This document shows positions 6,748-31,122 of a stretch of 31,122 nucleotides of DNA, piece by piece. A program made the translations under genes and the position numbers. Under the pieces are notes generated by a model. The model was given only the letters and a program-made list of their open reading frames with translations. It was not told the origin of the DNA and made no database searches. Each line of letters starts with the position of its first letter. Positions within the stretch are counted from its first letter, which is position 1. Source of the DNA: a virus; the IMG/VR virus record IMGVR_UViG_3300045988_093071, positions 1-31,122 of that record; one strand, written 5' to 3'.

Positions 6748-7825
6748 AACAAAAGTTCAGTTAAGTGCTATTGATCCATTTATTGCAAGTAATATCGTAT
6801 TACCTACAGAAACTAAAGTAAGAGGAAAAGATTATGTAATGTGAGGAGAAGATAATAAATATCCATTATATCTATGGGATCTATATTTAAATGTAGCTAC
6901 TCTTCAATCTATCATTAATGGTACTGCTGACTTTATTGTTGGTAACGATGTTAAATGTAATGCTCCAGGATTTGAAGTAGTTGTAAACAAGAAAGGTGAG
7001 ACTATTATGGATATTATGCGTAAAGTATCTAAAGATAAGATGATTTTTGGAGGATATGCTTTACAAATAATTAGAGATATGTTAGGTAGAGTTTCAGAGA
7101 TCTATCATCTTGACTTTATGAAGATTCGTTCTGATGAAAAGAATGAAGTATTCTATTATGCTGATGATTGGTCTGCTTGGTCTATTAAAGCTATCAAATA
7201 TCCAAAATTTAATTATTCAGATGATAATCCTACAAGTGTTGTTTATAATAAGGGTTATATAACAAGAAAAGTATATCCAGTCCCTGTTTATGGTGCAGCT
7301 ATCCTATCTTGCGAAACTGAGAAGAATATTAATGAGTTCCATCTAAATTCTCTTCATAATGGATTTATGGGCAATCTTATCATTAACTTTAATAATGGAC
7401 AGCCTACAGACGAAGTTAAAGAAGAGATTGAGATGAATATCAATGAGAAGTTCTCTGGTTATCAGAATGCTGGTAGAGTTCTTATTTCATATAATGATGA
7501 TGAAACAAATAAGACTACTATTGAGCGTTTAGATTCTGATGATTTTGATGAGAAATATAGTGCTTTATCTGATAGGACAAGAGAACAGATATTCTGCGCA
7601 TTTAGAGCTAATAGTGTACTTTTTGGCCTTAACTACTCAAGTGGATTCAACGAACAAGAATTTAATGAAGCTTTTAAACTTTATAATCGTACAGTAGTTA
7701 GACCAATTCAGGTCGAAATAGTAGATACATTTGATAAGATATTTGGAATGAAAGGTTCAATAACTATAACTCCTTTTAGCTTAACTCCAAATGGACAAGA
7801 AGATAGCAAACAAAATGTTGAATAA
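6734..7825 (+). CDS. Portal protein, PBSX/P2-like size class (363 aa). In-frame TGA at 6842-6844.
   Basis: ATG 6734 is in frame with track ORF 7007..7825. The N-terminal ..KYPLYLWDLYLNVATLQSIINGTADFIVGNDV.. resembles the conserved N-terminal block of PBSX-family portals. The family call is from memory. Confidence 0.6.
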
Positions 7826-8423
7826 TTATACTGTTTATTGCCATATAAATAAGTATAACAATAAGCTATATTTTGGCATTACTGGACAAAGTGTGCAAGC
7901 TAGGTGAAAAAATGGATATGGATACTCTACTCAAGCTTACTTTTATAAAGCGATACAAAAATATAGCTGAGATGGATTTGAACATATCATAATTAAAGAT
8001 AATTTACCAGAAGCTTGTGCTAAGACATTAGAAAGGATATTGATACATAAATATAAAACAAATACTCCTGAAAATGGTTACAATATAACATCAGGAGGAG
8101 AAGGTACATACGGGTATTCTTTTTCTAATGAGAGTAGAGCAAAAATGTCAAATTCTAAAAAAGGTAAAACACCCTGGAATAAAGGAAAGAAAGGAATCTA
8201 TACTTTGGAAACACTTATTAAAATTGGAAATGCTTCCAAAGGACGAATTACTAGAGTTAAGCCTATATTAAGATTTGATATGAATGGGAATTTTATTGCA
8301 AGATATAATTCAATGAAAGAAGCTGTTAAATCAGTTAATGGAGAACGTTCTGGATTATATTTAGCTTTAAAAGAAAATAGACCTTATAAAAACAATAAAT
8401 TTATTTATGATGGAACAACTTAA
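7815..8423 (+). CDS. Free-standing GIY-YIG homing endonuclease 1 (202 aa). In-frame TGAs at 7905 and 7968.
   Basis: It reads MLNNYTVYCHINKYNNKLYFGITGQSVQARWKNGYGY...KYSWDGFEH...NITSGGEG, followed by NUMOD3-like SxExRxKxS/GKxPWNKGKK repeats and a C-terminal DNA-binding-like tail. The start overlaps the portal stop by 11 nt. Confidence 0.85.
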
Positions 8424-9098: not shown

Positions 9099-9524
9099 AT
9101 GACCTACTATGAGATAATTAGCAATTTAAAAGCTTGTGCATTAGAAGAGCCAAACATCAATTTTGTAGGAAGTAAAGACATTTATGAGTTAAATAGCTTA
9201 CCAACTATTGAGTATAATGTGTTCTATATAACACCTAATACTTTTAGTGTAGATGAAGATACTATTACTTACTCTTTAAACCTATACTTCGTATCAAGAT
9301 GGGATGAGACTGATAACAACCAATTGGAGGAACAGTCAGCAGGTATGCTTGCACTGCAAAATATAATTAATCGTTTTAATAACCTATATCCAGAAGTTGA
9401 AATAGCTTATCCTTTAATTTATACTCCATTCTATCAAAAGTTCAAAGATATTACCTGTGGAGTGTTTGTTAGAGCTGATTTCCAAGTTGACAACACATTA
9501 GGCTTATGTCAAGACAGTATGTAG
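9099..9524 (+). CDS. Hypothetical virion protein (141 aa)
   Basis: Intact ORF ending in TAG, tightly coupled to the upstream gene. Confidence 0.45.
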   Translation: MTYYEIISNLKACALEEPNINFVGSKDIYELNSLPTIEYNVFYITPNTFSVDEDTITYSLNLYFVSRWDETDNNQLEEQSAGMLALQNIINRFNNLYPEVEIAYPLIYTPFYQKFKDITCGVFVRADFQVDNTLGLCQDSM

Positions 9525-10090
9525 TTTATATTCATACTTTTCCAAATGGGAAAAGATATGTTGGATTGACTACTCAATCAGTAAATAGTAGATGAAGAGG
9601 TGGAGAAGGATATAAAGATCAATTTGTTTATAAACCAATTAAAAAGTACGGTTGAAACAATATTAAACACACTATTTATTATGTAAATAGTGAATCAGAA
9701 ATGAAATATCTTGAAAAATACTTCTTTAGCTATTATAATACTACAGATTTAAGATTTGGTTATAATAGAACTGACACAAGTAATCATCCTATAGTTTCTA
9801 ATGAAACTAAAGTTATTATTTCTGAATTTGCTAAAACTAGAATAGGAAATAAAAATCCATTTTATGGTAAGCATCATTCGGAAGAAACTAAGGAATTAAT
9901 ACGCAAGAAAAATCAAAACTATGGAACTAAAGCTATTAGTCAATACACTTTAGATGGAAGATTTATAAAATCTTATAAAAGTATAAGATCAGCAGCAAGA
10001 GAGTTAAACATAACTTCTTCTTTAATATCTTCAGTTTTAAGTGGTAGGCAAAAACAAACTAAAGGATATACCTTTAAGTATAATATGTAA
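9506..10090 (+). CDS. Free-standing GIY-YIG homing endonuclease 2 (194 aa). In-frame TGAs at 9593 and 9653.
   Basis: It reads MSRQYVVYIHTFPNGKRYVGLTTQSVNSRWRGGEGY...KKYGWNNIKH, followed by NUMOD3-like repeats and a C-terminal AARELNITSSLISSVLSG helix-turn-helix. The start overlaps the upstream gene by 19 nt. Confidence 0.85.
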
Positions 10091-11363: not shown

Positions 11364-11933
11364 ATGTTTTACTATTGTTATAAAATTTATTTAACTGCTG
11401 GCTCATTGAGAGGAAAATATTACATTGGTAAGCGTATTTATAAAGGAAAAGACCCATATAAAGATCCATATAAAGGTTCTGGTAAAATTATTAAGAACTA
11501 CTATAAAAGATTTCCTAATGCATATAAAAAAGAAATAATTGCATTCTGTAATGATTCAGATGAATTATCTAAAAAGGAGTATGAATTAATAGGAGATAAA
11601 TGGGAAGTAGATCCAATGTGTTTAAACTTGAAGCCAGGAGGAGAAGGAGGCAATTACGGAGTCAAATTTAATTCTGAATGAAAGAAGAAACTGTCTAATT
11701 CTAATAAGGGAAAGAAACATAATTGCCCAGAATCTTGAAGAGTTAAAGTAGATGCTCATAACAAACAAAGATGTCGTAAAGTAGCTCAGTATGATTTAGA
11801 TGGTAATTTTATTCAAGAGTATGAAAGTTGCACAGAAGCAGCCAAATCTGTAGGAACTGATAGAGGAGCTATTAGTAGAGTATGTGGTGGATTAGCAAAT
11901 ACAGCTAAAGGATTCAAGTGAAGATATGTTTAA
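11364..11933 (+). CDS. Free-standing GIY-YIG homing endonuclease 3 (189 aa). In-frame TGAs at 11679, 11736 and 11919.
   Basis: It reads YCYKIYLTAGSLRGKYYIGKR...GSGK...E...NLKPGGEGG, then WKKKLSNSNKGKKH repeats and a C-terminal AAKSVGTDRGAISRVCGG helix-turn-helix. Confidence 0.8.
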
Positions 11934-12250: not shown

Positions 12251-12463
12251 TTAATCAAATTTTGAAATAAATGTAAAATCTCTTTGTGCTAATACTCTAT
12301 CTATAATATCTCCTAATTTCTTAGAATTCTCTTTAAATTCATTCATTCACTTATCAAACTCTTTAATAGTATCTTCTGACTTTTTAAGAGTTTCTTTAAT
12401 ATCCGCAATTCTATTTAAATATGAATCTTGGTCTAATAATAATGTATCCTTTGCTTCTAACAT
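12251..12463 (-). CDS. Small ORF (70 aa), hypothetical. In-frame TGA (plus-strand tca at 12347-12349).
   Basis: It reads MLEAKDTLLLDQDSYLNRIADIKETLKKSEDTIKEFDKWMNEFKENSKKLGDIIDRVLAQRDFTFISKFD. The start overlaps the helicase 3' end. Confidence 0.4.
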
Positions 12464-14129
12464 CCTTTTCAGTTTTAGTTGATTTTCTAACTTCAAAATA
12501 GTGTTCAATATCTGTTGCCTTTGCAGTTTTCTTTATACCTAAAGTCTTATATACATCAGCAATCCTATTCTTTAATAAAGCTAAATTGTAGAACATACCA
12601 TTCTGAATATCTCTTGTAAGTAATTTGGCAACCTTATTTGGCATATTTTTATCTGATATTTTAACAAGTTCCTCTTTAATATCTTTAATGCAATAACCCA
12701 AAGTTGCCATTCTTTCAAATCCCAGTTTATTAATTGCATCATTTAACCAAGGATATTTAATTAGAGCTTCATTTAATATAGGAGTTCCAACTTTAAATTT
12801 AGTTTCCCATTCAGCTCTTACATCTTTAATAAGCTCCTGAAATGACTTACTAGGAGCTTCAAGGTCTATCTTAATAGATTTATCTTCACATTCAGCAACC
12901 TTTATAAAGCCATTCTTTAGATATTCATTAGTAAGATTAACTCTTACAGAGTATAAACCTCTTGCAACCTTAAAATTGAATATATCTACTTTAGCCATAT
13001 TTGGGTCAAATTCAAAGGTATAATCCTCATTAATTTGAATATATGTGTCACTTGTAAAGTCTGTAATCTTCTTACGAGCTACTTCTGGAAGCTGATTGTA
13101 TGATTCAACTGCAATCTTTGTTTCTTCAATATTCTTTAATGTATTATTTTTAAATGTATCATAATCTATCTCTGCATATCTTGTGGCTGAATAAAGATGA
13201 GTAATCCAATTTAAATATTTACTATTTCTAATTCTACCAGCAATCTGTTGAATTGAAGTAGATATATCTAAAAGAGTCTGAGCTTTAGAGGAATCACTAA
13301 CTACAATAATTCTTCCATTTTCATCATAAATATCAGAACCTTCAAATACAGTAGAAGTCAATAAATTAATCTTCTTAGGTTCATCATTTACTGAAGAATT
13401 CTGAATTGGCAGTTTAGTTCTATTATTCTTAGAATATACTACTCTTGTGTTATCTGCTGTAAGTTTAGCCTTTAAAATAAGATTCTTTATAAAGTCAACA
13501 GAGTTAACAAATATATAAGCATTACCTTCAACATTTCCACTTAAAAATCCATTTATAAGCTTAATTGTGGAAGCTTCTACATTCTTGCATTTAACAGTCT
13601 GAACTTTAGTCTCAATAACATCATCCCATTCTTGTCTTACTAATGGCAATTTAGACAATTCATCTAAAACAAATTCATCTTCTAAGGGAGTAGCAGTCAT
13701 AAATGTATATTCTTTAAATAAGCTATATGTCTTTAATACATCTTTAATTGCGTCTCTTCTAAGACTATATTGATTAAATAGTATATGATATTCATCAATT
13801 AATAGGCTATAATCTTTAGGATTTACTGCTTCTATTACTTTATAAAGAGAATTATAAGTAACAATGATTTTAGGGCATTTAACTGAAGATATATAAGCTT
13901 CAATATCTGTCTTAGTAACACCTTGATAAACTCCAAAAATAGGCTCTTTACGTCTTTCATTAGGATATTGAGCAAGTTTATTCTCAACTAAACTTACAAA
14001 TGGAACACATATAACATAAGGCTTATCACACTCTAAAGCCATTGAAGTTCCACCACATCCTACTTTACCTTTGTCAAATAAGCAGTTAGTAGGTAATTCA
14101 TTGATTAAATTATTTAAATAAGTTTTCAT
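12411..14129 (-). CDS. SF2 (DEAD/DEAH-like) helicase with a C-terminal domain of unknown function (572 aa)
   Basis: Walker A is DKGKVGCGGTS, Walker B / motif II is LLIDEYH, motif III is MTATP, and motif VI is QQIAGRIRN. There is no in-frame TGA. Confidence 0.8.
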   Translation of the reverse strand: MKTYLNNLINELPTNCLFDKGKVGCGGTSMALECDKPYVICVPFVSLVENKLAQYPNERRKEPIFGVYQGVTKTDIEAYISSVKCPKIIVTYNSLYKVIEAVNPKDYSLLIDEYHILFNQYSLRRDAIKDVLKTYSLFKEYTFMTATPLEDEFVLDELSKLPLVRQEWDDVIETKVQTVKCKNVEASTIKLINGFLSGNVEGNAYIFVNSVDFIKNLILKAKLTADNTRVVYSKNNRTKLPIQNSSVNDEPKKINLLTSTVFEGSDIYDENGRIIVVSDSSKAQTLLDISTSIQQIAGRIRNSKYLNWITHLYSATRYAEIDYDTFKNNTLKNIEETKIAVESYNQLPEVARKKITDFTSDTYIQINEDYTFEFDPNMAKVDIFNFKVARGLYSVRVNLTNEYLKNGFIKVAECEDKSIKIDLEAPSKSFQELIKDVRAEWETKFKVGTPILNEALIKYPWLNDAINKLGFERMATLGYCIKDIKEELVKISDKNMPNKVAKLLTRDIQNGMFYNLALLKNRIADVYKTLGIKKTAKATDIEHYFEVRKSTKTEKDVRSKGYIIIRPRFIFK

Positions 14130-14163: not shown

Positions 14164-14213
14164 TGTAACTTTTTTTATTTATCTTACTACAAAATATTAG
14201 TAAAAAAGTTACA
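14164..14213. repeat. 50-nt palindromic element, copy A (TGTAACTTTTTT ... AAAAAAGTTACA, 12-bp perfect stem)
   Basis: It lies 35 nt upstream of the helicase ATG, inside the predicted helicase leader. The architecture matches the other three copies. Confidence 0.8.
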
Positions 14214-16893: not shown

Positions 16894-17254
16894 ATATCTT
16901 TATGCTGCAAGGTTATTTAATAAAGGATGGTCAAGAAATAAAGTAAGTGAGGAACTTCAAAGTAAATATAATGTAAGCCAATCAACAGCTGCAAGATATA
17001 TTGGAGAAGCTTATAAGATAATTGCTGAAAAGAACGATAACCTTATAAAAAACCTTAGACATATACAATTATCAAGATTGGAATCATTACTGGATACTGC
17101 TATTAGTAAGGGAGATATTAGAGCTGCAAATGAGATTATTAAGACTATAAATAGTATGTTTGGATTAAATCAACCTGAGACTATTGTAGCTATTCAGAAT
17201 AATGAAGTCCAGTTTAAATTTGGAGATCCAATTAACAATGACAAAAATATATAA
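16811..17254 (+). CDS. Terminase small subunit candidate (147 aa from ATG 16811; the track uses TTG 16805)
   Basis: It has an N-terminal KKKVGRPKK and the HTH-like KVSEELQSKYNVSQSTAARYIGEAYKII. It lies directly upstream of, and overlaps, TerL. Confidence 0.5.
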   Translation: MKEQIKKKVGRPKKAEVEKEQIDEVKTKYLYAARLFNKGWSRNKVSEELQSKYNVSQSTAARYIGEAYKIIAEKNDNLIKNLRHIQLSRLESLLDTAISKGDIRAANEIIKTINSMFGLNQPETIVAIQNNEVQFKFGDPINNDKNI

Positions 17255-18485
17255 AGGATATAGCCCATTTATCTATCAATTAAAGGTACATACTGCTATG
17301 AATGACTCATATAGGTCTGGTAAAATCTTTACAATTAAAGCAAAGAGACAGGTAGGTAAATCGTTCTTGGCAGAAAATGAATTATTGAGATTCGCTATAA
17401 ATTATCCTGGGAGTGTTAATTGTATAGTTGAACCAACTCTTGGACAATCTAGAAAGGTATTTAAAGAACTTGTACAAGCTGTTATAGACTCTGATATATT
17501 AAGGAGAAAGAATGAAACCTTATTAGAATTAGAGTTTAATAATGGCAGTTCTATACTATTTAGATCTGGGGAACAAATGGATTCATTACGAGGATTCTCC
17601 GTTAGTGGATTATTAGTACTTGATGAGGCAGCTTATCTTAAAGATGAAGTATTTGAAATTATTAAGCCTACCACTGATGTATGGAATGCTCCAATACTTA
17701 TAATTAGTACTCCAAGGTTTAGAGAAGGATTCTTTTATGAATGTTTTAAAAAAGGCTTTGATGGCAATTTTAGCAAATATTATCAATCCTTTGATTGAGC
17801 ATTAGAAGATACCTCTATGCTATTGAGTGAGGATAAACTTGAAATGTATCGCCTTACAACCTCCAAAAATAAATTTAGAACTGAATATCTTGGGGAGTTT
17901 GCAGATGATGATGGTTGTCTCTTTAATAATATATCTAACTGCATAATTGATAAAAAACCTGAATATCATAATCTTTATATTGGAGTTGACTGGGCTACTG
18001 GTTCTGGTAAAGACTATACTTGTATTACAGCTTTAAATGAAAATGGGCAGATGGTCTTTATAAAGTATTTTAACGACAAAACTCCAACAGAACAAGTTGA
18101 TTTACTGACAAATATATTTACTGAGTATCAGGGATTTATAAAGATAGTTCAAGTCGAACAAAACTCAATAGGTTCAGTGTTTTATGATATTCTTGTAAAA
18201 AGGAATTCTAAATTACGGATAGTTAAGTTTTTAACTACTAATAAGTCTAAAGCAGCTATTGTAAATAAGCTACAAGCTGCATTAGAAAACGAAAAGATTG
18301 GTATTTTAAAGGATGATAAACTATTAAATGAATTAAGACTATATGAAGCCAGTTATAATCCAAAGACTGGAAATGTATCATATAATGCTCCATCTGGATT
18401 TAATGATGATACTTGTATATCTTTAATGTTAGCTTATGATGCTTTAAATACAAATAAAGGAACTTATAATATTGCAATTAAATAA
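17238..18485 (+). CDS. terL: Terminase large subunit (415 aa; alternative start at 17202). In-frame TGA at 17796.
   Basis: Walker A is KAKRQVGKS and Walker B is GLLVLDEAAY. The RNaseH-like nuclease half (IGVDWATGSGKDYTCI...FNDDTCISL) lies beyond the TGA. Track ORFs 17202..17798 and 17817..18485 share a frame. Confidence 0.9.
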
Positions 18486-19287
18486 TGAATATAGCAACTA
18501 AATGGGAAGACGTAAGTCTTAAACAATATGAAGCTCTAATGGAGTTTATAAACAGTAATGCAAAGATGACTGATTTAGATAGAAGTATTGAGATATGTGC
18601 ATTACTTTCAGATGATCCAGATAAAACAAGAGATGCTCTTTTGAGTATGGGATTAGATGAATTAGCTACAGAACTTAGTAAAGTTCAATTTATAATCAAT
18701 AAATACAAAGCTAAGGCTCCAGAAACTGAATATACTATTGCTGGAGATAAATATACTGTACAATTAAATATTAGGCAGATGACTGCTGCTCAATATATAG
18801 ATTTTCAGAACTTTTATAAAGACTATCAAAAGAATTTTAAATATATCTTTTTATGCTTCTTAATTCCAAAAGGTAAGAAATATAATGAAGGCTATGATTT
18901 AATTGAACTGGCAGATAAGTTATATGATAAAATTCCAATTACTGTCATAAATGACATTATGGTTTTTTTTTGCAATCTATTAGCCGCATTAACGGTCAGT
19001 ACCCTAATCTCTTCAATAAGGGAGATGAAGAAGATGCTGAAGAAGGAGAAAGATCCAGTGAAGAAGTATCAATTAAGGAAGATGATCGTTCAGTCTCGGA
19101 AAACAGTGAGTTTGGTGCAAAATGGAACTGGGTTTGTTGAATAGACAGAGTTAGTGAAGTTACAAGATTAAATTGGCATCAAGTCTATGATATGTATATT
19201 CAAGAGTTTCTTAATATTATATGTTATCTAATAGATAAAGGAAATGAAGAAAAAAGACAAATAGAAGAGTGAAAGAGGAGACACTAA
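18485..19287 (+). CDS. Protein of unknown function with a -1 frame change at a T9 run (18963-18971). The zero-frame product is 219 aa (stop 19142-19144). The -1 product is 267 aa (stop 19285-19287) with two TGA=Trp codons (19138, 19270).
   Basis: The slippery heptamer T_TTT_TTT is in the zero frame. The -1 frame is open for 105 codons and reads ..DEEDAEEGERSSEEVSIKEDDRSVSENSEFGAKWNWVCWIDRVSEVTRLNWHQVYDMYIQEFLNIICYLIDKGNEEKRQIEEWKRRH. It ends 1 nt before element copy C, exactly as gene 5230..6201 ends 1 nt before copy D. Confidence 0.6.
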
Positions 19288-19288
19288 C

Positions 19289-19338
19289 TGTAACCTTTTT
19301 ACTCATATTTGGTACTAAGATAATATAAAAAAGTTACA
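19289..19338. repeat. 50-nt palindromic element, copy C
   Basis: TGTAACCTTTTTA ... TAAAAAAGTTACA starts 1 nt after the -1-frame stop codon. Confidence 0.8.
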
Positions 19339-19366
19339 AGGGAGTAAAAATCTCCCTTGCTTTTTG
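19337..19366 (+). terminator. Intrinsic terminator
   Basis: CAAGGGAG-taaaaat-CTCCCTTG is an 8-bp stem followed by CTTTTTG. Confidence 0.8.
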
Positions 19367-19405
19367 TATAGCTACTAATATTCAGAACAATATATTTTAT
19401 AAAAA

Positions 19406-19885
19406 ATGACAAGTCAAGATTTAAAATTCCCTAATCTTGAAGGAGTACTAAGACAATATGGAAGTCAATTGATTTCAATATATAGACAGAAGTTATTACA
19501 GAATAATGCTGATGATACAGGTACATTAGGTAATACTTTAAACTACATTGTTGAGGATCAAGATGGAATTTATGAAGTCAGCTTACAAATTCAAGATTAC
19601 TGAAAGTATTTGGAAGAAGGTAGATCTCCAGGTAAATTTCCACCTATTAGTGAAATAAAGAATTGGATAAGAACTAAACCTGTATTACCAAGACCTTATG
19701 GAGGTAAACTTCCATCTACAGATCAACTTGCATACTTAGTTGCAAGAAAGATTCATTTACAAGGAACACAAGGAAAGCGTATATTAGAAGAATCTTTAGA
19801 TGAGCTTTCGGCTGTTGCATTGTTAGATGATGCAATTACAAAAGATTTAGAAACGCAAGTTAATAATGTATTTAAAGACTTTTAA
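19406..19885 (+). CDS. Virion morphogenesis or neck protein candidate (159 aa). In-frame TGA at 19601.
   Basis: Track ORFs 19406..19603 and 19610..19885 share a frame. The junction reads ..LQIQDYWKYLEEGRSPGKFPP.. It is the first gene of the tail operon. The function is a guess. Confidence 0.55.
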
Positions 19886-19887
19886 AA

Positions 19888-22092
19888 ATGACATTTATAC
19901 CAAGTAAATTAGGAATACCAAGAAGTACAGGAACATATCCTGTTAAATGGGAAAATCCAGGATGGGGTCTTACAGGAGTATATGATTATTGGCTATGAGG
20001 AGATGACTATTCAGAAGAGGGTCCATTAGATGTTACTATTTCTAATGCAAGTACAAGCGGTTGTACTATTAACTTTAGAAACCCCTCAACTATTACAACG
20101 GACTCTTCTACAATATTTAGATTCTATCCAAGAGGACATACTACTGCTTTATTGGAAGATACTATGCCAGTTTATCTTCATAGTAAAGCCCCTGGATATT
20201 ATCCTGCAAATAGCAGTATAACAGTACCCAATACTGGAGGTACTTATACTGTTGAATATATATTAGGTAGAGCAGATATTATTAAATGAACTTGTGATGT
20301 AGTAAAGGCTATTGCTTTAGTAAGTGTTGAGGTATTAGAATGGGATTCCTGCTCTATTAAGTTTAAGATTACAGTAAATGCTAATACTCAATGGAATACT
20401 AATCTTACTGGAACTATTCAATTAGGAGCTTATTATGATACTAATAAGTTTATTTCTTATAGTTATGGCTTTACTATTGAAAAGAGTGGAGTTCCAGAAG
20501 ATTTGAAGTTAATAGTTAATCCATCATCTGGAACTTATGGAGCTGGCCCAGGTGTTACTGATAGATTTATGTGCACTCTAACAAGTACTGAGGAAGAGAT
20601 AACAGAATTATCTGTAACTTGTCCAGGATCTTCAAATATTATGGTTGATAAAGTTAATAAATACTTTGTTATTACTTTTCCTGATAATGCTACAACTAGT
20701 ATTAAAAACTATGCTGCATTAGTTACTGCAATAACCTCTGGTGGATATACATTAAATGCTACAGTTCCAATTACTAAGTTAGCTACTTCTTTATCTTTAA
20801 AGTCCAGTGTTAGTATTGGATATACAGCAGGAAGATATAAGATAGACGGTACAGGTTCTGATAATTTAGATGATGTAGTATTTGCAATTCCAGCAGATGC
20901 TCAGACTTGGTTAAGTAAAATGGAGTTAGTAATAGAAAGAGGAACTCCAGGAGGTATGAATATTGTAAGTATTAATTTTGATGCTACAGAAAATACAGGT
21001 AATGCTTCAAGAAAAGCAACAGTTGGAGTTACAGTAGTAAAAAATGGTTCTAGTGTTATAAATACTTCATTTAATATTGTACAAGAGGTTAAAGCAGATA
21101 TATCTCCAATATGGAAAGATTATATATGAGAAGAGGAAACTTTAAATGATTTTATAGAATATCATCTTGATTATGCAGGAGATACTATTTATGCTGGTAA
21201 AGCTTATAAATATCCTGATACTACAGGAGTACAATTTTTACTTAATGATGTATCTGAAGACTTTTTAGATAACGGCATTATATTTCCATCTTTTGGAAAG
21301 ACAGAAATTATACCTAACTATTTAAAAACCTTTACATTAATAACTTCAAGCGGTAGTGAAAAGCCTGTAACATTCTTTAATGATTGGTCTTATAAAGATA
21401 CAGATTTAACTAAGCCTTATTTCTTAAGTGATCCTATTGACACTTTAGTTGATTCAAGACAGTATGTATTATGTAGTTGGATATTCCCAACTGGTGAAGG
21501 TGTGCTTAATAGACGTTATACTACACCTGAAGGAGTAGCAACTACTGTAGATATTACATTACGACAAGGAATTAATGGTTATACTTATGCAGAACCTTTA
21601 GGCAATTTACTTTTAGAATGCAAGAGTAAATATGAAATAGGATTTGTTGAATCTGGCTCTTTTACTACAACTATTAATTATCAGATTGATACTACTAATA
21701 AGAATTATGTATTATATTATACTAATGCTTATGGAGGATGGGATAGTTTATTAGTACAAGGTAATGTTAAACAAACGGATCAAATTGAATCTCAGACTTA
21801 TGTAAGAAAGGTATTAAATACCGCTTCTCAGTTTAGTAAAAATAAGTATTTAAACACTATAGTTCCAGAATGGACTTTATATACTAATTATCTTACAGAT
21901 ACTCAAGCATCAAAGATGCACCATCTATTAGAATCTACTATGGTATATTTACATAATCTGGAGGATAATAAGATTATTCCTGTAATAATTACTAATAATA
22001 GTTGTGAGTATAAGACATATAGTAATCAGGGTAAAAATATGTTTTATTATACTATAGAAGTGCAAAGTTCTCAAGATAAATATAGAAAATAA
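19888..22092 (+). CDS. Large tail or baseplate protein (734 aa) with a BACON-like Ig domain. In-frame TGAs at 19996, 20287 and 21127.
   Basis: ATG 19888 is in frame with track ORFs 20503..21129 and 21502..22092, with no TAA/TAG between them. The segment ..AQTWLSKMELVIERGTPGGMNIVSINFDATENTGNASRKATVGVTV..NIVQ has the BACON-type pattern. The C-terminal half could be distal-tail-protein-like. Confidence 0.65.
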
Positions 22093-22093
22093 A

Positions 22094-25000
22094 ATGAGAA
22101 AGAATATTAAATTATTTATTGCAAATAAAGAGGTTGACTGTAGTGAGGGAATTAGTCTTCCTATAACTTATACAGTTGAGGATTTCCAAAACCCCACTAT
22201 AGTCAAGAACTCGTTTAGTAAGACGATTTCTATACCTGGTACCAAAAATAATAATAAGATATTTGGAGAAATCTATAAATTAGATAGATTACAACATATT
22301 GAAGACGGTCAGTTTAGCGGTATTAATTTCAATCCTTCAAAACGAGTTGATTTTGGAATCTATGATAATGGAGATTTAATAGAATCTGGTTATATGCAAT
22401 TAAATACCATACAAATTAAACAGAAGGTCATTACATATAACATTACTTTATATGGAGGCTTAGGAGATTTCTTCTATGGGCTTAAATATAAAGAAGATGG
22501 ATCATTAAGAACTCTTGCTGATTTACAATACTTTATTACAGATGAGGAAGGTAATGTTTTACCTGCTGATACTGAAATGGATTTTTATATTAATAAAGAT
22601 TTTGTAAATAAATCATTTAATAATTATTGGAATAGCGACTTTACTACATTAGATAGCTTTGTTGGATTTATTCCTGCATATAATGGTTTATATGAGAATT
22701 TTGACAATGAAACTTGTTTAATAAATACAGCAGGAGACACTCTATTTCCCAAATCTGCAAGCGATGGAGGAACAACATATACTCCATATAATGGTTATGC
22801 TTTAGCACAATTAAATAGAGCTTATACAGAATGGGAAATAAGAGACTTACGCAGTTATATGCAAAGACCAGTGTTAAAACTTTCTAAGCTTATAGAAACT
22901 ATTTGTAGAAAAGAGAATTCTGGATATGATGTAATATTTGATGATTACTTCTTTAATTATGCAAATCCTTATTGGAGTAAATCATTTGTAGCTCTTCCCT
23001 TGCTTGGAAGTAGTGAAGATGAAGAATCAGATTCTATTAAAGAGAACGCAAAGCTTATTAAATATGGAGCAGATAACTGGTGGGTAGGATTAAAACCTGG
23101 AGGAACAACAACTTCATATAATTGAGGATATACTTCTGTTGATGGCAGCGAGGTAATAGTTCCTGGAGAAGGAAATATTATTGATTTATCTGCAACACCT
23201 GCTAATACTTTAGTAAATATCTCAATGGATTTTCAGGTGTTCTTCAATGCTAATGCTAGTTCCTCTGCAAATAATCTTTATTTATCATATGTACGCAATG
23301 GAAAAATGGGAAATACTGAGTATCATAATGATCCGTATAGAACATCTTTAACTGTTCAGATACTTGTATATAATGCCGATGATGAATCTGTTCCATCTAA
23401 ACCTATAGCATATTCTCCATTGTATAATTTTACAAATAAGATTAATACTCAAGTTCAAGCTGGACCATCTACTTGGTTTAATTATTATCCTCTTACTGAT
23501 GCTCCTGTTGAGGCTATTTATGGCCATTTTGTTAAAGATAGTGGGCAGAGGTACTATTTTAAAAGTGATACGGGAAGCAATACCTTTAGATTTGTAGTTA
23601 AAGATATGCCAAAAGTAAATAAGATAAGGGTGTCAATTCAATTTGCCAGAAGAACAGAAAGTCTCTATAATCAAGATGCTTTATGGATTTCAGATAATAT
23701 GAACCCAAATAATGTTACTGCATCAAGAGTAGCAGGATGATCTGAATTTTTATATGATTCAGATCAATATACATTAATTGCAAGTTGGCCATCGGCTGTA
23801 ACATCTGATGCTCTTATTACTAAGCAGAAGCTTTTAAAGACAGAATCTACACCTGCGGATTATTTACTTAGCTATGCTAAAATGTTTGGATTATATTTTA
23901 TTAAAGATATAGATTCCAAAACTATTAGAATATTTACCAGAAACAACTTCTTTAAAAATAAGATAACAGATTGGTCTAAACGAATTGATTATTCAAAAGA
24001 TTTTTCAGTTAATCCATTATTATTTGATAAGAAGTGATATACTATGAAACAAGAAGCTCCTGAGACGTATTATGCAAAGAAATATAATAAACAGTATGAT
24101 ATAACTTATGGGCAACAGAGATTAGATACAGGATATAATTTTAATAGTGATAATACAGATTTATACTCAGATAACTTATATGAAAATGTAATATCTGCAA
24201 GAGATGTAGATAAGTATTATAGAAACTATTTTAATAGTTCAAGTTCACCTGTTCCTTGCTTCTTAAATGATAATATTACTTATCAATTATTCCATTCTAC
24301 ATCTACTGAAAGAAAAACAAACGATCAGGATCTTTATGGAGTAAATTTCATTGATTCATCTAAGACTACAGAGTGGTGGGATGTTCCTGGTAATGATATA
24401 TTTGCAAAGACTTGTTTCTATTCATTAGATAATGATGAGCAAAGTTTAGAAGAAATTAAATCGACATTACTGTTCTATAATGGCAATGTAGAGATGAAAG
24501 ATATTGATGGAAATCCTATTACATATTGGATTACTGATGATGTTACAGAAATGTCTGTATTAAATGATTCTGAACCTTGCTATTTATATACTACTAGAGA
24601 AACTAATGAAGCTGGTGCTAAGATTGCAATTAAAAGAACCTCTTTACCACAATTCATAAGATATAATATATCAAGTAATTATGTAATATCTAGTTGGGAT
24701 TTTGGATTACCAAGAGAAATTTATATAGATAAAATTGCATATCCAGAACAAAGTGTTATTTATTCTCAATTCTGGAAAGAGTTCTATACTGATCAATTTG
24801 ATGTTAATACTAAGAAAGTTACTTGTTTTGTAAAATTAAATGATTTACAAGTAAACTTTGATATGTTAAGACAATTTTATTATTTTGAAGATAGTTATTG
24901 GGTATTAAATAAAATAGATGCTTATGATGTTAATTCTGATGCAACTACCAGATGTGAATTTATAAGAGTTCAAGACATCAATAATTATATAGGAGGAGTA

Positions 25001-25543
25001 TCTACTTTAGGTAAATACATAGAAGTAAGTGACCCAGAAGTTACTGTAGGGTATGAAGCTGGAAGTAAAGTTGTAACTATAGAATCTAATGTTCCTTGGA
25101 AAGTTAGTTGGTATAATAATTTGAAGATTACAAATATTTCACCAATGGAAGGATTACCTGGAATTAGTACTATGACTATTGAATATAATGAAAATCCTAA
25201 ATATATTGAAGATAACTTCTATTTAAGTTTAGTAGCTCAATCTGATATTTATGAAAGATTAGGACAAGTATATTTTTATCAAACTCCTGATCCATCTAAA
25301 TCAGTAAAGCTTTCTGGAAAAGTAACAGATGCAGATGGTAAAGTATTAGATGTACAACCTTATATCTATGTAGATAATGACAACTTTGTAGATAGTACAT
25401 ATTGTGATGCAACAACTGGAGAGTACTATTTATATGTTCAAAAAGGAGTTCCATTCCATTTTGAAGTACAATTATCAAGTGTTGTTAAATATGAGGAAGA
25501 ACTTACTTTAAATGCAGATACTATTAAAAATATTACTATTTAA
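22094..25543 (+). CDS. Very large tail tip or baseplate protein (1149 aa) ending in BACON-like and CarboxypepD_reg-like domains. In-frame TGAs at 23123, 23738 and 24035.
   Basis: Track ORFs 22094..23125, 23225..23740 and 24044..25543 share one frame with clean linkers. The C-terminus reads ..VTVGYEAGSKVVTIESNVPWKVSWYNNLKITNISPMEGLPGISTMTIEYNENP.. and then ..LSGKVTDADGKVLDVQPYIYVD..DATTGEYYLYVQKGVPFHFEV.. Confidence 0.7.
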
Positions 25544-25545
25544 AT

Positions 25546-27861
25546 ATGGCTGAAGAAATTAAAAAGGTAATAGATATAGATACTACTAAAAGTACAAAGT
25601 CAATCAAGCAGCTACGAGAACAAGTAGCTGGCTTGACTGACGAACTTGAATCATTGGAAATTGGTAGTTCTGACTATTCCAAAAAACTTGAAGAGCTTGT
25701 AAGTGCACAAAACAAGCTTAATGTAGCTACTGAATCTATGCAAGGTAAGACTGTAAATGCAGTTAAAGCTTTTGATAGTATTAACCAAGTAGCTGGCGGT
25801 CTTGCAGGTGGAGTTTCGGCTGTAAGTGCTGCATTTACTTTATTTGGAAGAGATACAGAGAATCTCCAGAAAACTATGGTTAAGCTTCAAGCAGCTATTG
25901 CTATAGTTCAAGGAATTGGAGGATTAAAGGGTTTAGGTGAAGGTGTTCTTAATGGAGTAAAATCATTTAAGGCTTTATCTGTTGCGATGGCTGGTGCTAC
26001 GACTGCTACTGGAGGTTTATCTGTTGCGATGGGAGTGCTACGAACTGCTATTATATCAACAGGTATTGGAGCATTAGTAGTAGCATTAGGAATGTTAGTA
26101 GACTTTGCAATCAAAGCAGCATCTGGAGTTGATGATTTAAAAATTAGTATTTCAGGGTTAAAAGACATAACAGACCAATGAGGAACTAGCTATGCACAAG
26201 CTAATACAGAAATTGCAGGATTAGAAAGACAGAGAGAAAGAGATTTAGCTGAAGGTAAAAAGAATGAAATACAAATCTGAAAGGATTATGCTCAAGCATT
26301 AGGTGAATTAGATGCTAAATTATTCCAGCAATTTGGAAGTGTAACTAAAGCATATAATGATTCATTTACAGATATACTTAAGAGTAATAAATACTTCAGA
26401 AAAGAGTTTAAGAAATCTGGATATGACACTTGGGAGGAGTATTCACAAGCTATACAATGAGGATTAAAAACTAGTTCTAATGAAGTTGATTTCTTTTTAA
26501 GTAAGTTAAATGATGATCAAAGAGCTGCTTACGACGAAGCTTCTGGTATCTACAATGCATATATAGAGAAGAGAAATAGTTTAATGCAGAAAACTTCAGA
26601 AACTTATGAAAAGATTAAACTGATGGAAATCTCTGCAGAGCGTAAAGCCAGAGAAGAGGCTAAGGCTAACTATCTAAAGAATATTGAAGATGCAAAGAAA
26701 CGTAACGCTGATTTACTGAAGGTTATCAATGATTTCTATGAAGAGAATAGAAAACTGCTATTAGATGATGAAGCTAGAGAGTTAGATGAATTAAATACCA
26801 AATATCAAAATCAATTAGATGCTCTTAAAACAGCTAAAGATAAAGAGCTTATAACAGTTGAGGAATATAGAAAGAGATTAAAGCAAATAAATGATGCTTA
26901 TGATAAAGAGTATCTAGACAATCAGAACGAGCGGTATCGTAAAGAAATTAATAATAGAATTAATTCTTTAGAACAACTTAGAGAACGAGAGAATAGATTT
27001 TTTGATCAAAGGCAATCTGAGTTAGATACTAAATATAATAAGACATATACACATAATGCAGGTCTTGGAAACGAATACAAGACTGCGGGAGATATAAAGA
27101 GTGAAAAGAACGATAGAATAACACAATCTAATGAGCTACTTGAAATACAGTTAGGATTCTACGAAAGAGATAATAAAAGAATTGGAGAATTACAAACCAC
27201 TTTAAAAGAATCGTTTGATAATGGCTTAATAACTCAAGAAGAGTATAATAATGAGTATGCAAGATTAAATGCAGAAAGAGAAGCAAATGATACTGCTGCT
27301 GCAAATGCTATTGTAGCTAATGGAGAAAAAATAAAGGCTGCTAAAAAAGATGAAATTAAAGACATTGTAGCTGCTGTTCAAGGAAGTTTTGCTGCATTAG
27401 GAAGTTTAGGTGATGCTGTAGCTCAAAACTATAAATTTGAGGCAAATAATTCCAAGAAGTCATTAAAGGAGAGAGAAAAAGCTATGGAAAATTATAAGTC
27501 TATAGCTAAAATATCTACCGTATTTAATACCGCTTCTGCAGCAATGAATGCTTATAACTCTATGGCAGGAATTCCAGTAGTAGGTCCTGTATTAGGTGGT
27601 ATTGCTGCTGCTGCAGCTATTGCTATGGGATTACTTCAAATTAAAAATATTGAAAATGAAGAAATATCTGGTAGTGATGTATCATCTTCAGTATCCGCTC
27701 CATCTGCACTTACACAAGCTCCTGTTGAGTATACTCGAAATTTACTTGGAAATAAAGAGACTGATGAACTTAATAATCCAGTTAAGTGTTATGTTGTTGA
27801 ATCTGATATTACTTCAGCTCAAACTAAGGTAGCAGTTACTGAATCTAATGCTTCATTCTAG
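25546..27861 (+). CDS. Tape-measure-like protein (771 aa; coiled coils plus Gly/Ala-rich hydrophobic segments). In-frame TGAs at 26179, 26278 and 26458.
   Basis: Track ORFs 25546..26181 and 26584..27861 share a frame with no TAA/TAG in the 400-nt linker. Features are long heptad-like segments, GGLAGGVSAVSAAFTLFG and IPVVGPVLGGIAAAAAIAMGLL hydrophobic blocks, and a TAG stop. Confidence 0.5.
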
Positions 27862-27871
27862 AAATGTTTAA

Positions 27872-27921
27872 TGTAACTTTTTTATTCTTATTAACTACAA
27901 AATATGAGTAAAAAGGTTACA
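27872..27921. repeat. 50-nt palindromic element, copy B
   Basis: TGTAACTTTTTTA ... TAAAAAGGTTACA lies 10 nt after the TAG stop. Its loop is nearly identical to that of copy A (CTACAAAATAT[TG]AG). Confidence 0.8.
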
Positions 27922-27973
27922 TTAGATATTCTAAAAATATTACAAATTTATAAAGTGCTATATATTAATAAAA

Positions 27974-28567
27974 ATGGAAATTACTTATAATGATCTTCCA
28001 TTATTTCAGGCAGTGATTACTGATGATTGTGATGGAATAGAATATGTTGCTTTAACAAGCAAACCAGCTACACAAGTTAACTGGGTTGCTTTTAGTAATT
28101 CTCAGAAGTTCTCGATGGATGAAGATAAGCATTTAGTAACATCTTGCTTAATGTTAAGTGATACTCCAATTTTCAGACGAGATGAGAAACTCGGAGAATA
28201 CTACATACAGTATGATAAGGAAACTCTTCGTAAAATGGCAGAGAAGATGCTGTATGATAAGAGAACTACAGATGTAAATATTGAACATTTAGAAGATTCT
28301 GATTTAAATGGAATTACTCTACAAGAAATCTATGTAAAGGATATTAATAGAGGAATATCTCCAGTTGAATTCCAGGATGTTCCTGATGGTTCTTTATTTG
28401 CCACTTATAAAGTAGATAATCAAGTTATTTGAGATGCAATTAAAGCTGGTAAGTTTAAAGGGTTCTCAATTGAAGGTTTATTTACTTTAGAGAGAAAGTC
28501 TGATGAATATGACGAAATAAAAGAGATCCTTAATATGATTAAGAAGATAAAAAGAGTTAAACATTAA
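27974..28567 (+). CDS. XkdF-like prohead protease candidate (197 aa). In-frame TGA at 28430.
   Basis: The N-terminus reads ..GIEYVALTSKPATQVNWVAF.. After the TGA it reads ..VIWDAIKAGKFKGFSIEGLF.., the W..[IV]K.G...G.S[IV].G block typical of the PBSX XkdF family. It lies upstream of the scaffold and capsid genes. Confidence 0.6.
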
Positions 28568-28580
28568 AATTATTAATTAA

Positions 28581-29183
28581 ATGAGCAAATTCACAAGAAT
28601 CAAGCTTGAATTGGCTAAAATGCTTGCAAAGTTCAGTGATATTAAAACTGATAAGGCAGTACTTACTTGGGATTCAGATGAAGACTTACGCGCTGGTATG
28701 GATGTATATGTTCAGGATGAGAACGGAGAATACAAACCTGCTGAGGATGGTGAGTATGTAACTGAGGATGGAAAGACGATTGTTGTTAAAGACGGTAAAG
28801 TAGAGTCTGTAACTGATCCTAAAGCTGAGGTTGATCCAGAAGAAGCAGCTAAATCAGAAGTTGATGCTGCTTGTGGGAAACGCAAGGTAGAAACTGCTGA
28901 AGAGCCAGTTGATCCTGAAGTAGCTACTGATGGTGACAAAGAAACTGTAACTGATGCAATTGATGCAATTCATCGCGAAATTAATGAGCTTTATGACATT
29001 GTTGATAAGCTTGTTAAGAAAGTAGCTGAATTAGAGGGTAAATCTGAAGCTACAGAAAAGACGGTTGAAAAGATGAGCAAAATGAGTGCTGCATTTTCAG
29101 CTGAGGAACAGATAGAAGGTAAAGCTTCAATAATGACTGGCAATCCTGTTATTGATAAAAAGCTTAAAAACTTTATTGGTTAA
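28581..29183 (+). CDS. Scaffolding protein candidate (200 aa, acidic, coiled-coil)
   Basis: It is Asp/Glu-rich with a helical C-terminus (EINELYDIVDKLVKKVAELEGK), contains no Trp, and lies directly upstream of the capsid gene. Confidence 0.55.
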   Translation: MSKFTRIKLELAKMLAKFSDIKTDKAVLTWDSDEDLRAGMDVYVQDENGEYKPAEDGEYVTEDGKTIVVKDGKVESVTDPKAEVDPEEAAKSEVDAACGKRKVETAEEPVDPEVATDGDKETVTDAIDAIHREINELYDIVDKLVKKVAELEGKSEATEKTVEKMSKMSAAFSAEEQIEGKASIMTGNPVIDKKLKNFIG

Positions 29184-29205
29184 TTATTAAATTATTTATA
29201 AAATT

Positions 29206-30111
29206 ATGGCAAATAGTCCTGTAATGACTAGTCTTACTGCTTATGTAGAGCAGAGACGTCTTCCTCTTATTAAAGAGGCTGTATTAAAGGCTAAGAGTGC
29301 TTCGTTGTTCAATCTTCAAACTGACATCAAAACTAGTGCTGCTCTTAACCTGTTATCAACTGCTATTCAGTTTGGCGATGGCCTAGCTTGTGGTTGGGAT
29401 GAAGCTGGAACTCAGACTCTTTCTCAGAGAATTCTAGCTACTGGTAATATTAAGATCAATATGGCATATTGTGATAAAGAGATGCTTAAATACTGGACTC
29501 AGTATCAAGTACGAGTAGCTGCTGGTCAGAAGACGCTTCCTTTTGAAGAGGATTTCGTAAATGCAGTAGTTGAGAATGTTAAGGCTGCTATTGAGACTGC
29601 TATTTGGCAGGGTGATACTGCTTCTGAAACAAATAACCTGAAGTATTTTGATGGTCTGTTAAAGATCCTTGGTGCTGCTGATGGGGTTGTTGATGTAGTA
29701 ATTACTGGAGCATCTGCTTATGATGACATTATGGCTGTTTATAACGCTATTCCTGAGAAGGTTCTGGATGGTGCTTCTATCTTAGTTGGCAGTGATACTT
29801 TCCGTAAATTTATCCAGGAGTTAGTTGCTAAGAACTACTACCACTATAGTGGTGAGAATCTTAATGGTGAGATTATGCTTCCTGGTTCGCAGGTTAAAGT
29901 AATCGCTGTTAATGGTCTTAATGGAACTGATAAGATTGTTGCTGGTCAGTTAGATAAGAACTTCTTCTATGGTTGCGATATGATGAACGATGAAGAGAAG
30001 TTTGAATTGTGGTATTCACAAGATTTCCGCGAATTTAGATTAGCTATTGAATTTAACGCTGGTGTACAGGTTGCATTCCCTGATGAGGTAGTTCTTGGTG
30101 CCAAAGCCTAA
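29206..30111 (+). CDS. Major capsid protein candidate (301 aa)
   Basis: The call rests on its position after the protease and scaffold genes, its more GC-rich and biased codon usage, and its size and pattern (..LPFEEDFVNAVVENVKAAIETAIWQGD..), all typical of HK97-fold capsid proteins of gut phages. There is no in-frame TGA. Confidence 0.65.
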   Translation: MANSPVMTSLTAYVEQRRLPLIKEAVLKAKSASLFNLQTDIKTSAALNLLSTAIQFGDGLACGWDEAGTQTLSQRILATGNIKINMAYCDKEMLKYWTQYQVRVAAGQKTLPFEEDFVNAVVENVKAAIETAIWQGDTASETNNLKYFDGLLKILGAADGVVDVVITGASAYDDIMAVYNAIPEKVLDGASILVGSDTFRKFIQELVAKNYYHYSGENLNGEIMLPGSQVKVIAVNGLNGTDKIVAGQLDKNFFYGCDMMNDEEKFELWYSQDFREFRLAIEFNAGVQVAFPDEVVLGAKA

Positions 30112-30149
30112 TTTCAATAGAGTTTAACTTTAAATAAGATTGAAATTAT

Positions 30150-30674
30150 ATGGCTTGTTTAATAACTATCGCTGGTATTACCCTGGATTGCGAATCTTCG
30201 CTTGGTGGTATCAAACAGGTATGGATTACTCAGTACGATAATGTTAAGAGTGTAACTGTAGATGATGAGACTAATCAAATCTCAGCTATTACTCTTGAAT
30301 CAGATGCTAAATGGTATAATTACCAATTCCGCAAAGGTACTGGTTCTCTAACCTCAACATTGAACGTTGACGAAACTGCAGGAACCAACTATGTAAGTAA
30401 TGAGCTTGCTCTTGTATTTACAAAGATGGAGACTAAGAAAAGAATCGAGATTGCTGCTCTTTCTATTGGACAACTTGTAGTTGTTGTAGAAGATTCTAAT
30501 GGCAAATACTGGTTCTTAGGAAAAGATGACTATGTAAGCGCTTCCGCTGGTACGGGTGTTACTGGTACTGCAAAAGGTGATCAGAACGCTTATACGCTGA
30601 CTTTAGCTACTGACTCTGAATCATATCCTTATGAGTTGAGTGCTGAAGCTATTCAAAGTGTTGTAGGTGCTTAA
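30150..30674 (+). CDS. Tail tube-like or head-proximal structural protein (174 aa)
   Basis: It is co-expressed with the capsid gene and followed by a strong terminator. The pattern C..SLGGI..V.....F.F.KGTGS......G.....L.L.F......I..L..G.L.V.V.D.NGKYW.LG resembles siphovirus tube proteins. This is uncertain. Confidence 0.4.
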   Translation: MACLITIAGITLDCESSLGGIKQVWITQYDNVKSVTVDDETNQISAITLESDAKWYNYQFRKGTGSLTSTLNVDETAGTNYVSNELALVFTKMETKKRIEIAALSIGQLVVVVEDSNGKYWFLGKDDYVSASAGTGVTGTAKGDQNAYTLTLATDSESYPYELSAEAIQSVVGA

Positions 30675-30757: not shown

Positions 30758-31122
30758 ATGGCTATTAAATATACAACACCAGAAGTGGCAAAGAATACAA
30801 CTTCAAGAGATATTGAAGCTTTAGCTGCTCAAGAATGTAAATTACAGGAGAAGTCTGTAGAATATACTCAGAATGCTGAGTTCGTTGTAACTCCAGATGA
30901 GGGTTATGATGGTATGTCGAAAGTAAATGTATCTGTTGATGTTGTTGTTCCTACAGTACAAGCTACTAAAGAGATTACAATTACATCTAACGGATTAATA
31001 GATATTTTACCTGATCCAGATTATGATGTTATGGAGAAGGTTTCTGCACAAATAAATGTTCCAGTACCAACTCCTACTTTACAAGAGAAACATATAACAA
31101 TAGATAAAAACCTATCAATGAC
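30758..31122 (+). CDS. 5' part of LRR protein copy 1 (continues at nt 56 -> 878 through the circular junction)
   Basis: ATG 30758 follows the 18-nt conserved start context. The frame is open to the window end and in phase with nt 3 onward at the start of the window. Confidence 0.8.
   Translation, partial: MAIKYTTPEVAKNTTSRDIEALAAQECKLQEKSVEYTQNAEFVVTPDEGYDGMSKVNVSVDVVVPTVQATKEITITSNGLIDILPDPDYDVMEKVSAQINVPVPTPTLQEKHITIDKNLSM
31068..31122. repeat. Terminal overlap, second copy (identical to 1-55)
   Basis: Exact identity to the first 55 nt of the window. Confidence 0.95.

Follow-up and report, generated by a model that had tools for sequence, protein, structure and literature searches.

A conserved run of nine T's in the gene after a phage terminase as an apparent recoding site for two products of one gene

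In the phage genome held as IMG/VR virus record IMGVR_UViG_3300045988_093071, of which positions 1 to 31,122 (31,122 nucleotides (nt), together referred to as the window) were analysed, the gene directly downstream of the gene for the large terminase (TerL), here named gene X, contains a run of nine T's (T9) beyond which both the zero frame and the -1 frame are open. This raises the question of whether the run causes one gene to yield two proteins and, if so, whether it is the ribosome or RNA polymerase that slips on it. A preliminary description of the window, made from the sequence alone, had offered three readings, i.e. programmed frameshifting, transcriptional slippage and a homopolymer miscall; comparison with related loci upholds recoding by one or both of the first two and, because the run and the frames are conserved, excludes the third. 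In total, the comparisons support that T9 is a conserved recoding site, not a sequencing error, through which one gene yields a short and a long isoform, and that this site is ancient and has gone unannotated in a very large phage gene family. Which machine slips, in what ratio the two products are made and what they do, we infer.

Gene X and the elements around its T9 run are listed in Table 1. All coordinates and readings of the preliminary description, i.e. the run, the heptamer embedded in it, both stop codons, the 105 codons of the -1 frame with two TGA codons, and the product lengths of 219 and 267 amino acids (aa), were rechecked and are correct. The zero frame ends with TAG at 19142-19144, and residues 1-162 joined to the -1 extension give the 267-aa long isoform. 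The run at 18963-18971 is the only one of at least nine in the genome, and the count of T9 or A9 in the window (1, compared with 3.3 +/- 2.7 in shuffles) is not above chance for so AT-rich a genome. What gives the run its significance is not its occurrence but its conservation at the homologous position in ~100 related loci.

In each of 20 relatives identified in IMG/VR, with identities of 37-95%, the run had the same position and a length of exactly nine, and both frames were open. A second scan added 65 more distant loci with 24-35% protein identity from many different metagenomes. Across the ~100 related loci with a T run at the homologous position, the run was T9 in most. When hidden Markov models (HMMs) of the N-domain and the C-domain were applied to 104 loci, the N-domain fell in frame 0 and the C-domain in frame -1 in all informative loci but two, i.e. 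L022, which lacks a T run and whose distantly related protein P0028 is naturally a long form of 250 aa in one continuous frame, and L058, which has T10; in two further loci, the C-domain HMM had no match. The same two-frame layout was present in relatives that use the standard code (L021 and L023). Moreover, it was found in the cultured Nonlabens phage P12024S (JQ823122, L104), in which TerL is followed by a 175-aa open reading frame (ORF) carrying T9 at 23578-23586 and the -1 frame runs on into P12024S_39, listed in GenBank as a separate ORF. P12024S_38 (175 aa) and P12024S_39 (55 aa) are thus the two frames of one recoded gene at 23136-23830, for which the record has no frameshift annotation. 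The Nonlabens phages were reached only with their own protein as the query, and tblastn searches of GenBank phages with gene X and with protein P0161 gave no match. A profile search returned 3,165 cluster representatives of the gene X family, most of them 200-220 aa long, which is the length of the short form, and at 50% identity the family comprises more than 3,000 clusters. One test proposed in the preliminary description was the conservation of the slip site and of the two frames among relatives; all are retained down to 24-35% identity, in many independent assemblies and in one cultured phage.

Both frames downstream of the run vary among relatives as expected for protein-coding sequence. 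Past the zero-frame stop, variation in the -1 frame was 0.12, 0.07 and 0.35 at codon positions 1, 2 and 3, respectively, which is coding-like. Within the overlap of the two frames, the variation was flattened (0.29, 0.24 and 0.35 over the codon positions), as dual coding would give, and both translations of the overlap were conserved among relatives. The 56-aa zero-frame tail was conserved in sequence as well as in length down to 30% identity. In an AlphaFold2 model of the short form with a predicted local distance difference test score (pLDDT) of 94.9, helices span residues 152-187 and 191-213, and the tail is a confident helical hairpin. The -1 tail, which was modelled alone, apart from the N-domain, is predicted to have a short helix with the motif NGQYPNLF (NxGYPNLF in the family), an acidic disordered linker (pLDDT <50) and a three-helix C-domain (pLDDT 81-90). 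In the overlap, a K/R-rich helix in frame 0 and an E/D-rich linker in frame -1 arise from the same purine-rich repeats, AAG AAG being read as GAA GAA; therefore, the short form has a basic and the long form an acidic tail. An internal duplication of the N-domain was suspected at a probability of 11%, which we treat as a lead only. Both of the products foreseen in the preliminary description, of 219 and 267 aa, are backed by conservation of the coding type, and these patterns support that both are real.

These observations bear on two further explanations. In the first, T9 is a homopolymer miscall or an assembly error, the true genome has T10, and gene X is one continuous ORF of 267 aa. Rare assemblies do vary in run length, and P0028 does have a continuous ORF; however, T9 and the frame break recur across dozens of metagenomes (~100 loci) and in the genome of one cultured phage, the 56-aa zero-frame tail, which under T10 would never be translated, is conserved and folds confidently, and the overlap is under dual-coding constraint. 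Thus, the comparative data already refute a miscall, to which we assign a negligible probability. In the second, the length of the run varies between genomes in a manner like phase variation, so that long-form and short-form genomes coexist and each makes one form. Single assemblies indeed differ from the T9 of their close relatives, with T7 in L106 (1979-1985, SRR29408824), T8 in L107 (~1979-1986, ERR4563371) and T10 in L058 (2956-2965), and long homopolymers are unstable in replication. The T7 and T10 variants set the long form in frame, the T8 variant truncates it after three codons, and all three are either real variants from slippage at the DNA level or sequencing errors. But such variants are rare (~3 in 110 loci), one infecting genome must supply both products, and both tails are under purifying selection in the same genomes, so that both would have to be expressed from T9 genomes. 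We consider variation between genomes very improbable as the source of the two forms.

The data also locate the change of frame. Conservation of the -1 frame at the protein level begins with the first codon past the run (INxGYPNLF), the -1 frame is closed by a stop codon 5-33 nt before the run across lineages (5-16 nt in lineages other than that of the window), and no start codon for the -1 ORF is conserved among relatives; the shift is therefore pinned to the run. These observations likewise leave scarcely any probability for the explanation that there are two separate genes, in which the -1 ORF would be translated from a start of its own (TTG at 18970 in the window; an internal ATG in P12024S_39) and never be fused to the N-domain. 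Gene callers do report the -1 ORF separately (P0298 of 105 aa, P12024S_39 and others), and a profile of the -1 tails retrieved only 21 such separate ORFs and no additional long form in one continuous frame. Nevertheless, the TTG belongs to the run and is absent where the run is in other registers, and natural fusions exist in P0028, in the T10 and T7 variants and in the 243-aa protein A0A6J7WJY4, which matches the models of both the short form and the -1 tail.

We then compared the anatomy of the slip site in 52 lineages whose -1 tails are <80% identical to each other. T9 was present in 40 of the 52, in codon register 1 in 14, in register 2 in four and in register 3 in 22. Shorter runs comprised T8 in one lineage (register 2), T7 in eight and T6 in three (all in register 3), and no lineage had a run longer than T9. 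A heptamer T_TTT_TTY in register was present in 52/52 lineages, those with short runs included. In the T9 lineages, the two T's outside this heptamer were both downstream in 22, both upstream in 14 and one on each side in four, and there were never more (Fisher p=9e-5 for this placement among lineages that share ancestry). Among members with a GC content >0.45, Phe codons elsewhere in the gene were TTT in 24 and TTC in 110 cases, yet 19/26 still had T9. A stop codon in the +1 frame followed the run within at most one codon in 25/52 lineages (21/40 of those with T9), compared with 0.14 expected, and these early stops were built by differing sequences (CTAA, GTAA, GTGA, CTGA, TGA and TAG). Finally, no conserved RNA structure was detected in the 45-60 nt downstream of the run in T9 lineages (mean z ~-0.1). 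The window agrees with this, and with the preliminary description, which had noted no convincing stimulatory structure downstream: z ranges from -1.2 to -1.7, and the hairpin there is weak (4+4 bp).

Two machines could slip at this site. Transcriptional slippage is marked by a homopolymer of about nine A's or T's in any codon register, as found here with T9 in registers 1, 2 and 3 in 40/52 lineages, and ribosomal -1 frameshifting by a heptamer X_XXY_YYZ in the zero-frame register, which in the window is the T_TTT_TTT at 18964-18970. A stimulatory RNA structure 5-9 nt downstream often accompanies such a heptamer but is not obligatory. According to a review (PMC5009743), bacterial RNA polymerase slips efficiently in vivo at runs of nine A's or T's, the RNA:DNA hybrid is 9-10 bp long, and U_UUU_UUU is a poor -1 site for the ribosome in E. 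coli. The exact nine T's in any register, the cap at nine and the retention of T9 in GC-rich genomes fit polymerase slippage and favour it, as do the lack of a conserved stimulatory structure in T9 lineages and the enrichment of early +1 stops; the register independence of T9 in particular tilts the choice towards the polymerase. The early +1 stops are only an indirect hint of mRNAs with inserted or deleted U's. Moreover, the run length itself appears to be under selection.

On this basis, we propose that slippage by RNA polymerase is the main route at T9, with -1 slippage by the ribosome contributing, a call that we regard as evenly balanced. Unshifted reading would give the short form of 219 aa that ends in the basic helical hairpin, and a -1 change of frame at T9 would give the long form of 267 aa with its short helix, acidic disordered linker and three-helix domain. 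Nine rU:dA pairs would fill the RNA:DNA hybrid, so that the transcript could realign; a fraction of the mRNAs would then carry U10 and encode the long form in frame, and some would carry U8 and enter the +1 frame, in which translation would be stopped almost at once. Two tRNA-Phe slipping by -1 on the embedded U_UUU_UUU could add to the long form, and in relatives in which the run has shrunk to T6 or T7 this ribosomal slip would be the sole route. Extended to the whole family of more than 3,000 clusters next to TerL, the proposal is that polymerase slippage acts on an exact T9, that U8 transcripts give a truncated third product and that the T6 and T7 relatives have switched to ribosomal -1 frameshifting; we advance this wider version tentatively, at somewhat less than an even chance.

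The main rival is purely ribosomal programmed -1 frameshifting, in which two tRNA-Phe slip on U_UUU_UUU, the contribution of the polymerase is negligible and the extra T's are a second, overlapping slip site or simply Phe or Leu codons of the protein. Several observations weigh against a leading role for the polymerase and in favour of this rival. The heptamer T_TTT_TTY is in register in every lineage and all 11 runs of six or seven T's occupy register 3, as ribosomal -1 frameshifting requires, so that ribosomal slippage alone could account for the long form; the single T8 is also in a permitted register. In addition, two overlapping ribosomal slip sites within T9 could favour long runs without any involvement of the polymerase, and the kinship of the lineages means that the Fisher test and the enrichment counts exaggerate how independent the cases are. 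A strong hairpin lies 4-9 nt downstream of the run in some short-run relatives (L090, L099, L091 and L077), z being -5 to -6 over 60 nt in L090 and L099; a contrast between short runs with hairpins and T9 without them was considered but is anecdotal, and it was set aside because it lacked significance when all lineages were compared (Mann-Whitney p=0.34). Finally, the chaperone gene of phage P2 has GGT TTT TTG at its annotated -1 site. However, a purely ribosomal mechanism, for which seven bases in one register suffice, leaves unexplained why there are exactly nine T's in three registers, with the surplus placed on either side and never exceeding two T's, why GC-rich members that otherwise use TTC keep T9, why early +1 stops are enriched and why T9 lineages lack a conserved stimulatory structure. 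Furthermore, U_UUU_UUU is reported to be weak in E. coli, and T9 to make bacterial RNA polymerase slip in any case (PMC5009743). Slippage by either machine would yield one and the same long protein, with the junction IMVFFLQSISR. Altogether, we regard purely ribosomal frameshifting as quite possible, with a chance somewhat below even.

Table 1. Coordinates of gene X, its slip site and neighbouring features in the window
Feature	Position	Strand	Remarks
Large terminase TerL, 427 aa, code 4	17202-18485	+	phrog_2 E=2e-38; Pfam Terminase_6N/6C; stop overlaps start of gene X (TAATG)
Gene X zero frame, 219-aa short isoform	18485-19144	+	N-domain ~residues 1-160; basic helical-hairpin tail residues 163-219
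-1 frame stop 33 nt 5' of T9 run	18928-18930	+	-1 frame open from 18931; 5' bound of shift window
T9 run, slip element	18963-18971	+	zero frame ATG GTT TTT TTT TGC; in-register T_TTT_TTT at 18964-18970
-1 frame extension of gene X	18970-19287	+	105 codons and TAA (19285-19287); two TGA read as Trp
Dual-coding overlap	18972-19141	+	frame 0, basic helix; frame -1, acidic linker
First +1 frame stop, TAG, 3 codons past T9 run	18981-18983	+	would end products of U8/U11 transcripts or of a +1/-2 slip
Inverted-repeat element TGTAAC..GTTACA, 50 nt, intergenic	19289-19338	+	begins 1 nt past -1 frame stop of gene X
Terminator-like hairpin (19337-19359), then T tract CTTTTTG	19337-19367	+	8-bp stem, 5 GC pairs
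Next gene, 159 aa, probably tail completion/Neck1-like	19406-19885	+	BLASTP E=8e-35 to 212-aa protein of L021, 5e-9 to P12024S_42
Tape measure protein, 771 aa	25546-27861	+	phrog_2854 E=2e-12, plus four other tape-measure PHROGs

As for what gene X does, we lean slightly towards a role as a tail assembly chaperone like the G/GT pair of phage lambda. As in G/GT, the two predicted products share their N-terminal part and differ by a conserved -1 change near the 3' part, both frames being conserved as protein in ~100 loci. The block of TerL, gene X, the tail completion or Neck1-like gene, two large proteins and the tape measure gene is common to the window, L021 and P12024S; the 212-aa protein of L021 and P12024S_42 both match phrog_5 'tail completion or Neck1', and no other chaperone candidate was found next to the tape measure gene in the window. 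The only recurrent Pfam match in relatives of gene X was Phage_TAC_7 (PF10109, the family of P2 gpE and Mu gp41), in 13/93 scans (5/60 and 8/33). In BFVD, the first named match, behind 33 uncharacterised phage proteins, was a tape-measure chaperone frameshift protein (E=0.23), and searches with the models of the short form and of the -1 tail otherwise returned uncharacterised family members only. If gene X is a chaperone, the short form would act as a coat on its likely client, the tape measure protein, and the long form would recruit a partner via its C-domain.

Several findings count against this role. All matches to Phage_TAC_7 are below the gathering score (the best at 18.3 bits, E=0.0023, against 25) and cover residues 18-64 of gene X only, and hhalign of the gene X family against P2 gpE gave a probability of 3-9%. 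Foldseek and sequence-profile searches of the PDB with gene X gave nothing significant, and Pfam, PHROGs and NCBIfam scans of the gene X protein of the window gave no match. Moreover, the overlap is long (56 codons), and gene X is tied to TerL, which ends directly upstream of it in 38/49 testable lineages, and is parted from the next gene by the terminator-like hairpin. The gene thus lies after TerL, three genes and ~6 kb before the tape measure gene, whereas G/GT sits between the genes for the tail tube and the tape measure. Of the analogy to G/GT drawn in the preliminary description, the two-product design is borne out as a reasonable comparison, but membership of the chaperone family is not established; its caveat on the position, that the gene adjoins TerL and not the tape measure gene, is correct. 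In the PDB search, chains of the HK97 small terminase appeared only at E=2-5 and were taken as helical-hairpin noise. A separate gene upstream of TerL is, in our own reading, like the gene for a small terminase (TerS); its sole PHROG match was phrog_645.

The two ends of the window are an exact direct repeat of 55 nt (1-55 = 31068-31122), taken as the assembly overlap, which indicates that the phage genome is complete, with 31,067 bp, and either circular or terminally redundant. TGA is decoded as Trp (code 4), with 32 in-frame TGA codons and 77 TGG codons across 35 genes; ORFs merge under table 4, and every gene stops with TAA or TAG and none with TGA. No tRNA gene was found in the window, and thus no suppressor tRNA is encoded. 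TGA is absent from one gene of 572 aa, which lies on the minus strand (12411-14129), and gene X has distant relatives with the standard code.

An inverted-repeat element of ~50 nt, of the form TGTAAC-N38-GTTACA, occurs in four copies (6203-6252, 14164-14213, 19289-19338 and 27872-27921), the first being a TGTCAG..CTTGACA variant. Three of the four begin 1-10 nt past the last stop of a block of genes on the + strand, and the copy at 14164-14213 is intergenic, past the minus-strand gene; two are followed by terminator-like hairpins. As the preliminary description had it, the -1 frame of gene X stops 1 nt before such an element. Both the element and the hairpin downstream of it follow the -1 stop and not the zero-frame stop, in keeping with recoding, and the transcription unit with gene X ends past the -1 ORF. 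Sequences related to the element also come after gene X in relatives. The element may be a phage regulatory site or a promoter/operator site, and an Rfam scan of the window detected no family.

Elsewhere in the genome, the gene order at 17202-30674 is unusual, i.e. TerS-like, TerL, gene X, tail completion-like, a 734-aa protein, a 1149-aa protein, tape measure, protease, scaffold-like, major capsid and a 174-aa protein (30150-30674). The portal gene (6734-7825) lies ~10 kb upstream of TerL on the map, and P12024S has the same gene order. The structural region contains three genes for homing endonucleases of the GIY-YIG type (7791-8423, 9506-10090 and 11364-11933), the first confirmed by phrog_314 and the other two judged by eye from N-terminal motifs. 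Three paralogous proteins (51-878, 3418-4344 and 5230-6201), which look like leucine-rich-repeat receptor-binding proteins, share C-terminal segments (e.g. 767-802 compared with 6081-6116, 83% identical), and two 73-aa paralogues (878-1099 and 4346-4567) come after two of the three.

The locus matters for annotation as well as for mechanism. Thousands of phage genomes, including those of the cultured Nonlabens phages P12024S and P12024L, list gene X as one or two hypothetical ORFs; this should be one recoded gene with two products. Many of the phages with gene X likely infect Bacteroidota, as judged from the one cultured host. In a widespread phage group with a non-canonical order of tail genes, gene X may supply the tail assembly chaperone that has been missing, and tools for frameshift prediction or gene calling will overlook it if they look for the chaperone beside the tape measure gene. 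A T9 that is exact in length and independent of register across proteins with 25-35% identity is a natural experiment on slippage, for which a culturable pair of host and phage exists (Persicivirga sp. IMCC12024 and P12024S). Our literature search, with incomplete coverage, retrieved no description of the gene X family, of T9 slippage in phage tail genes or of programmed transcriptional slippage in a phage morphogenesis gene. If the polymerase is responsible, the users of transcriptional slippage, among them dnaX, insertion sequence (IS) elements and genes of type III secretion, would come to include phage morphogenesis, the case would be the first of its kind in a morphogenesis gene of a tailed phage, and the family would have undergone a natural and repeated exchange between two recoding mechanisms within one gene family.

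Three known systems frame these findings. The first is gpG/gpGT of phage lambda, an example of the -1 frameshift that is conserved among genes for tail assembly chaperones (Xu, Hendrix and Duda 2004, as described in PMC5009743). Proteins of this type bind the tape measure protein and, in the long form, the tail tube protein; they are absent from virions, and the short form is in large excess. Like gene X, it is one gene with two products that share an N-terminal part and differ by a -1 extension, it is part of a tail morphogenesis block with the tape measure gene, and its arrangement is conserved far beyond sequence similarity. It differs in position, as set out above, and in its slip site, G_GGA_AAG in lambda compared with a T9 homopolymer in gene X; moreover, the shift in gene X occurs 56 codons before the zero-frame stop, so that each form has a sizeable tail of its own and ~170 nt are dual-coding, and gene X has no significant match in sequence or fold to any chaperone family. 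The second is E/E+E' of phage P2 (PF10109, Phage_TAC_7), which shares with gene X a T-rich slip site with tRNA-Phe codons directly past a (V/I)xxFF/GFL motif, but in which the run is T6 within T_TTT_TTG, the E protein has 91 aa and the gene lies directly before the tape measure gene. The third comprises dnaX of Thermus thermophilus, with a run of nine, and mxiE of Shigella, with T9, both of which use programmed transcriptional slippage, whereas dnaX of E. coli reaches the same end by ribosomal -1 frameshifting (Larsen et al. 2000, as cited in PMC5009743 and PMC3711429). As in gene X, nine A's or T's match the length of the RNA:DNA hybrid and give access to a second frame, and homologues elsewhere carry a shorter, classical heptamer; gene X differs in being a phage morphogenesis gene that is known here from its DNA sequence. 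We conclude that the site in gene X is a variant on the known theme of the tail-chaperone frameshift, in which T9 makes transcriptional slippage a serious and testable possibility.

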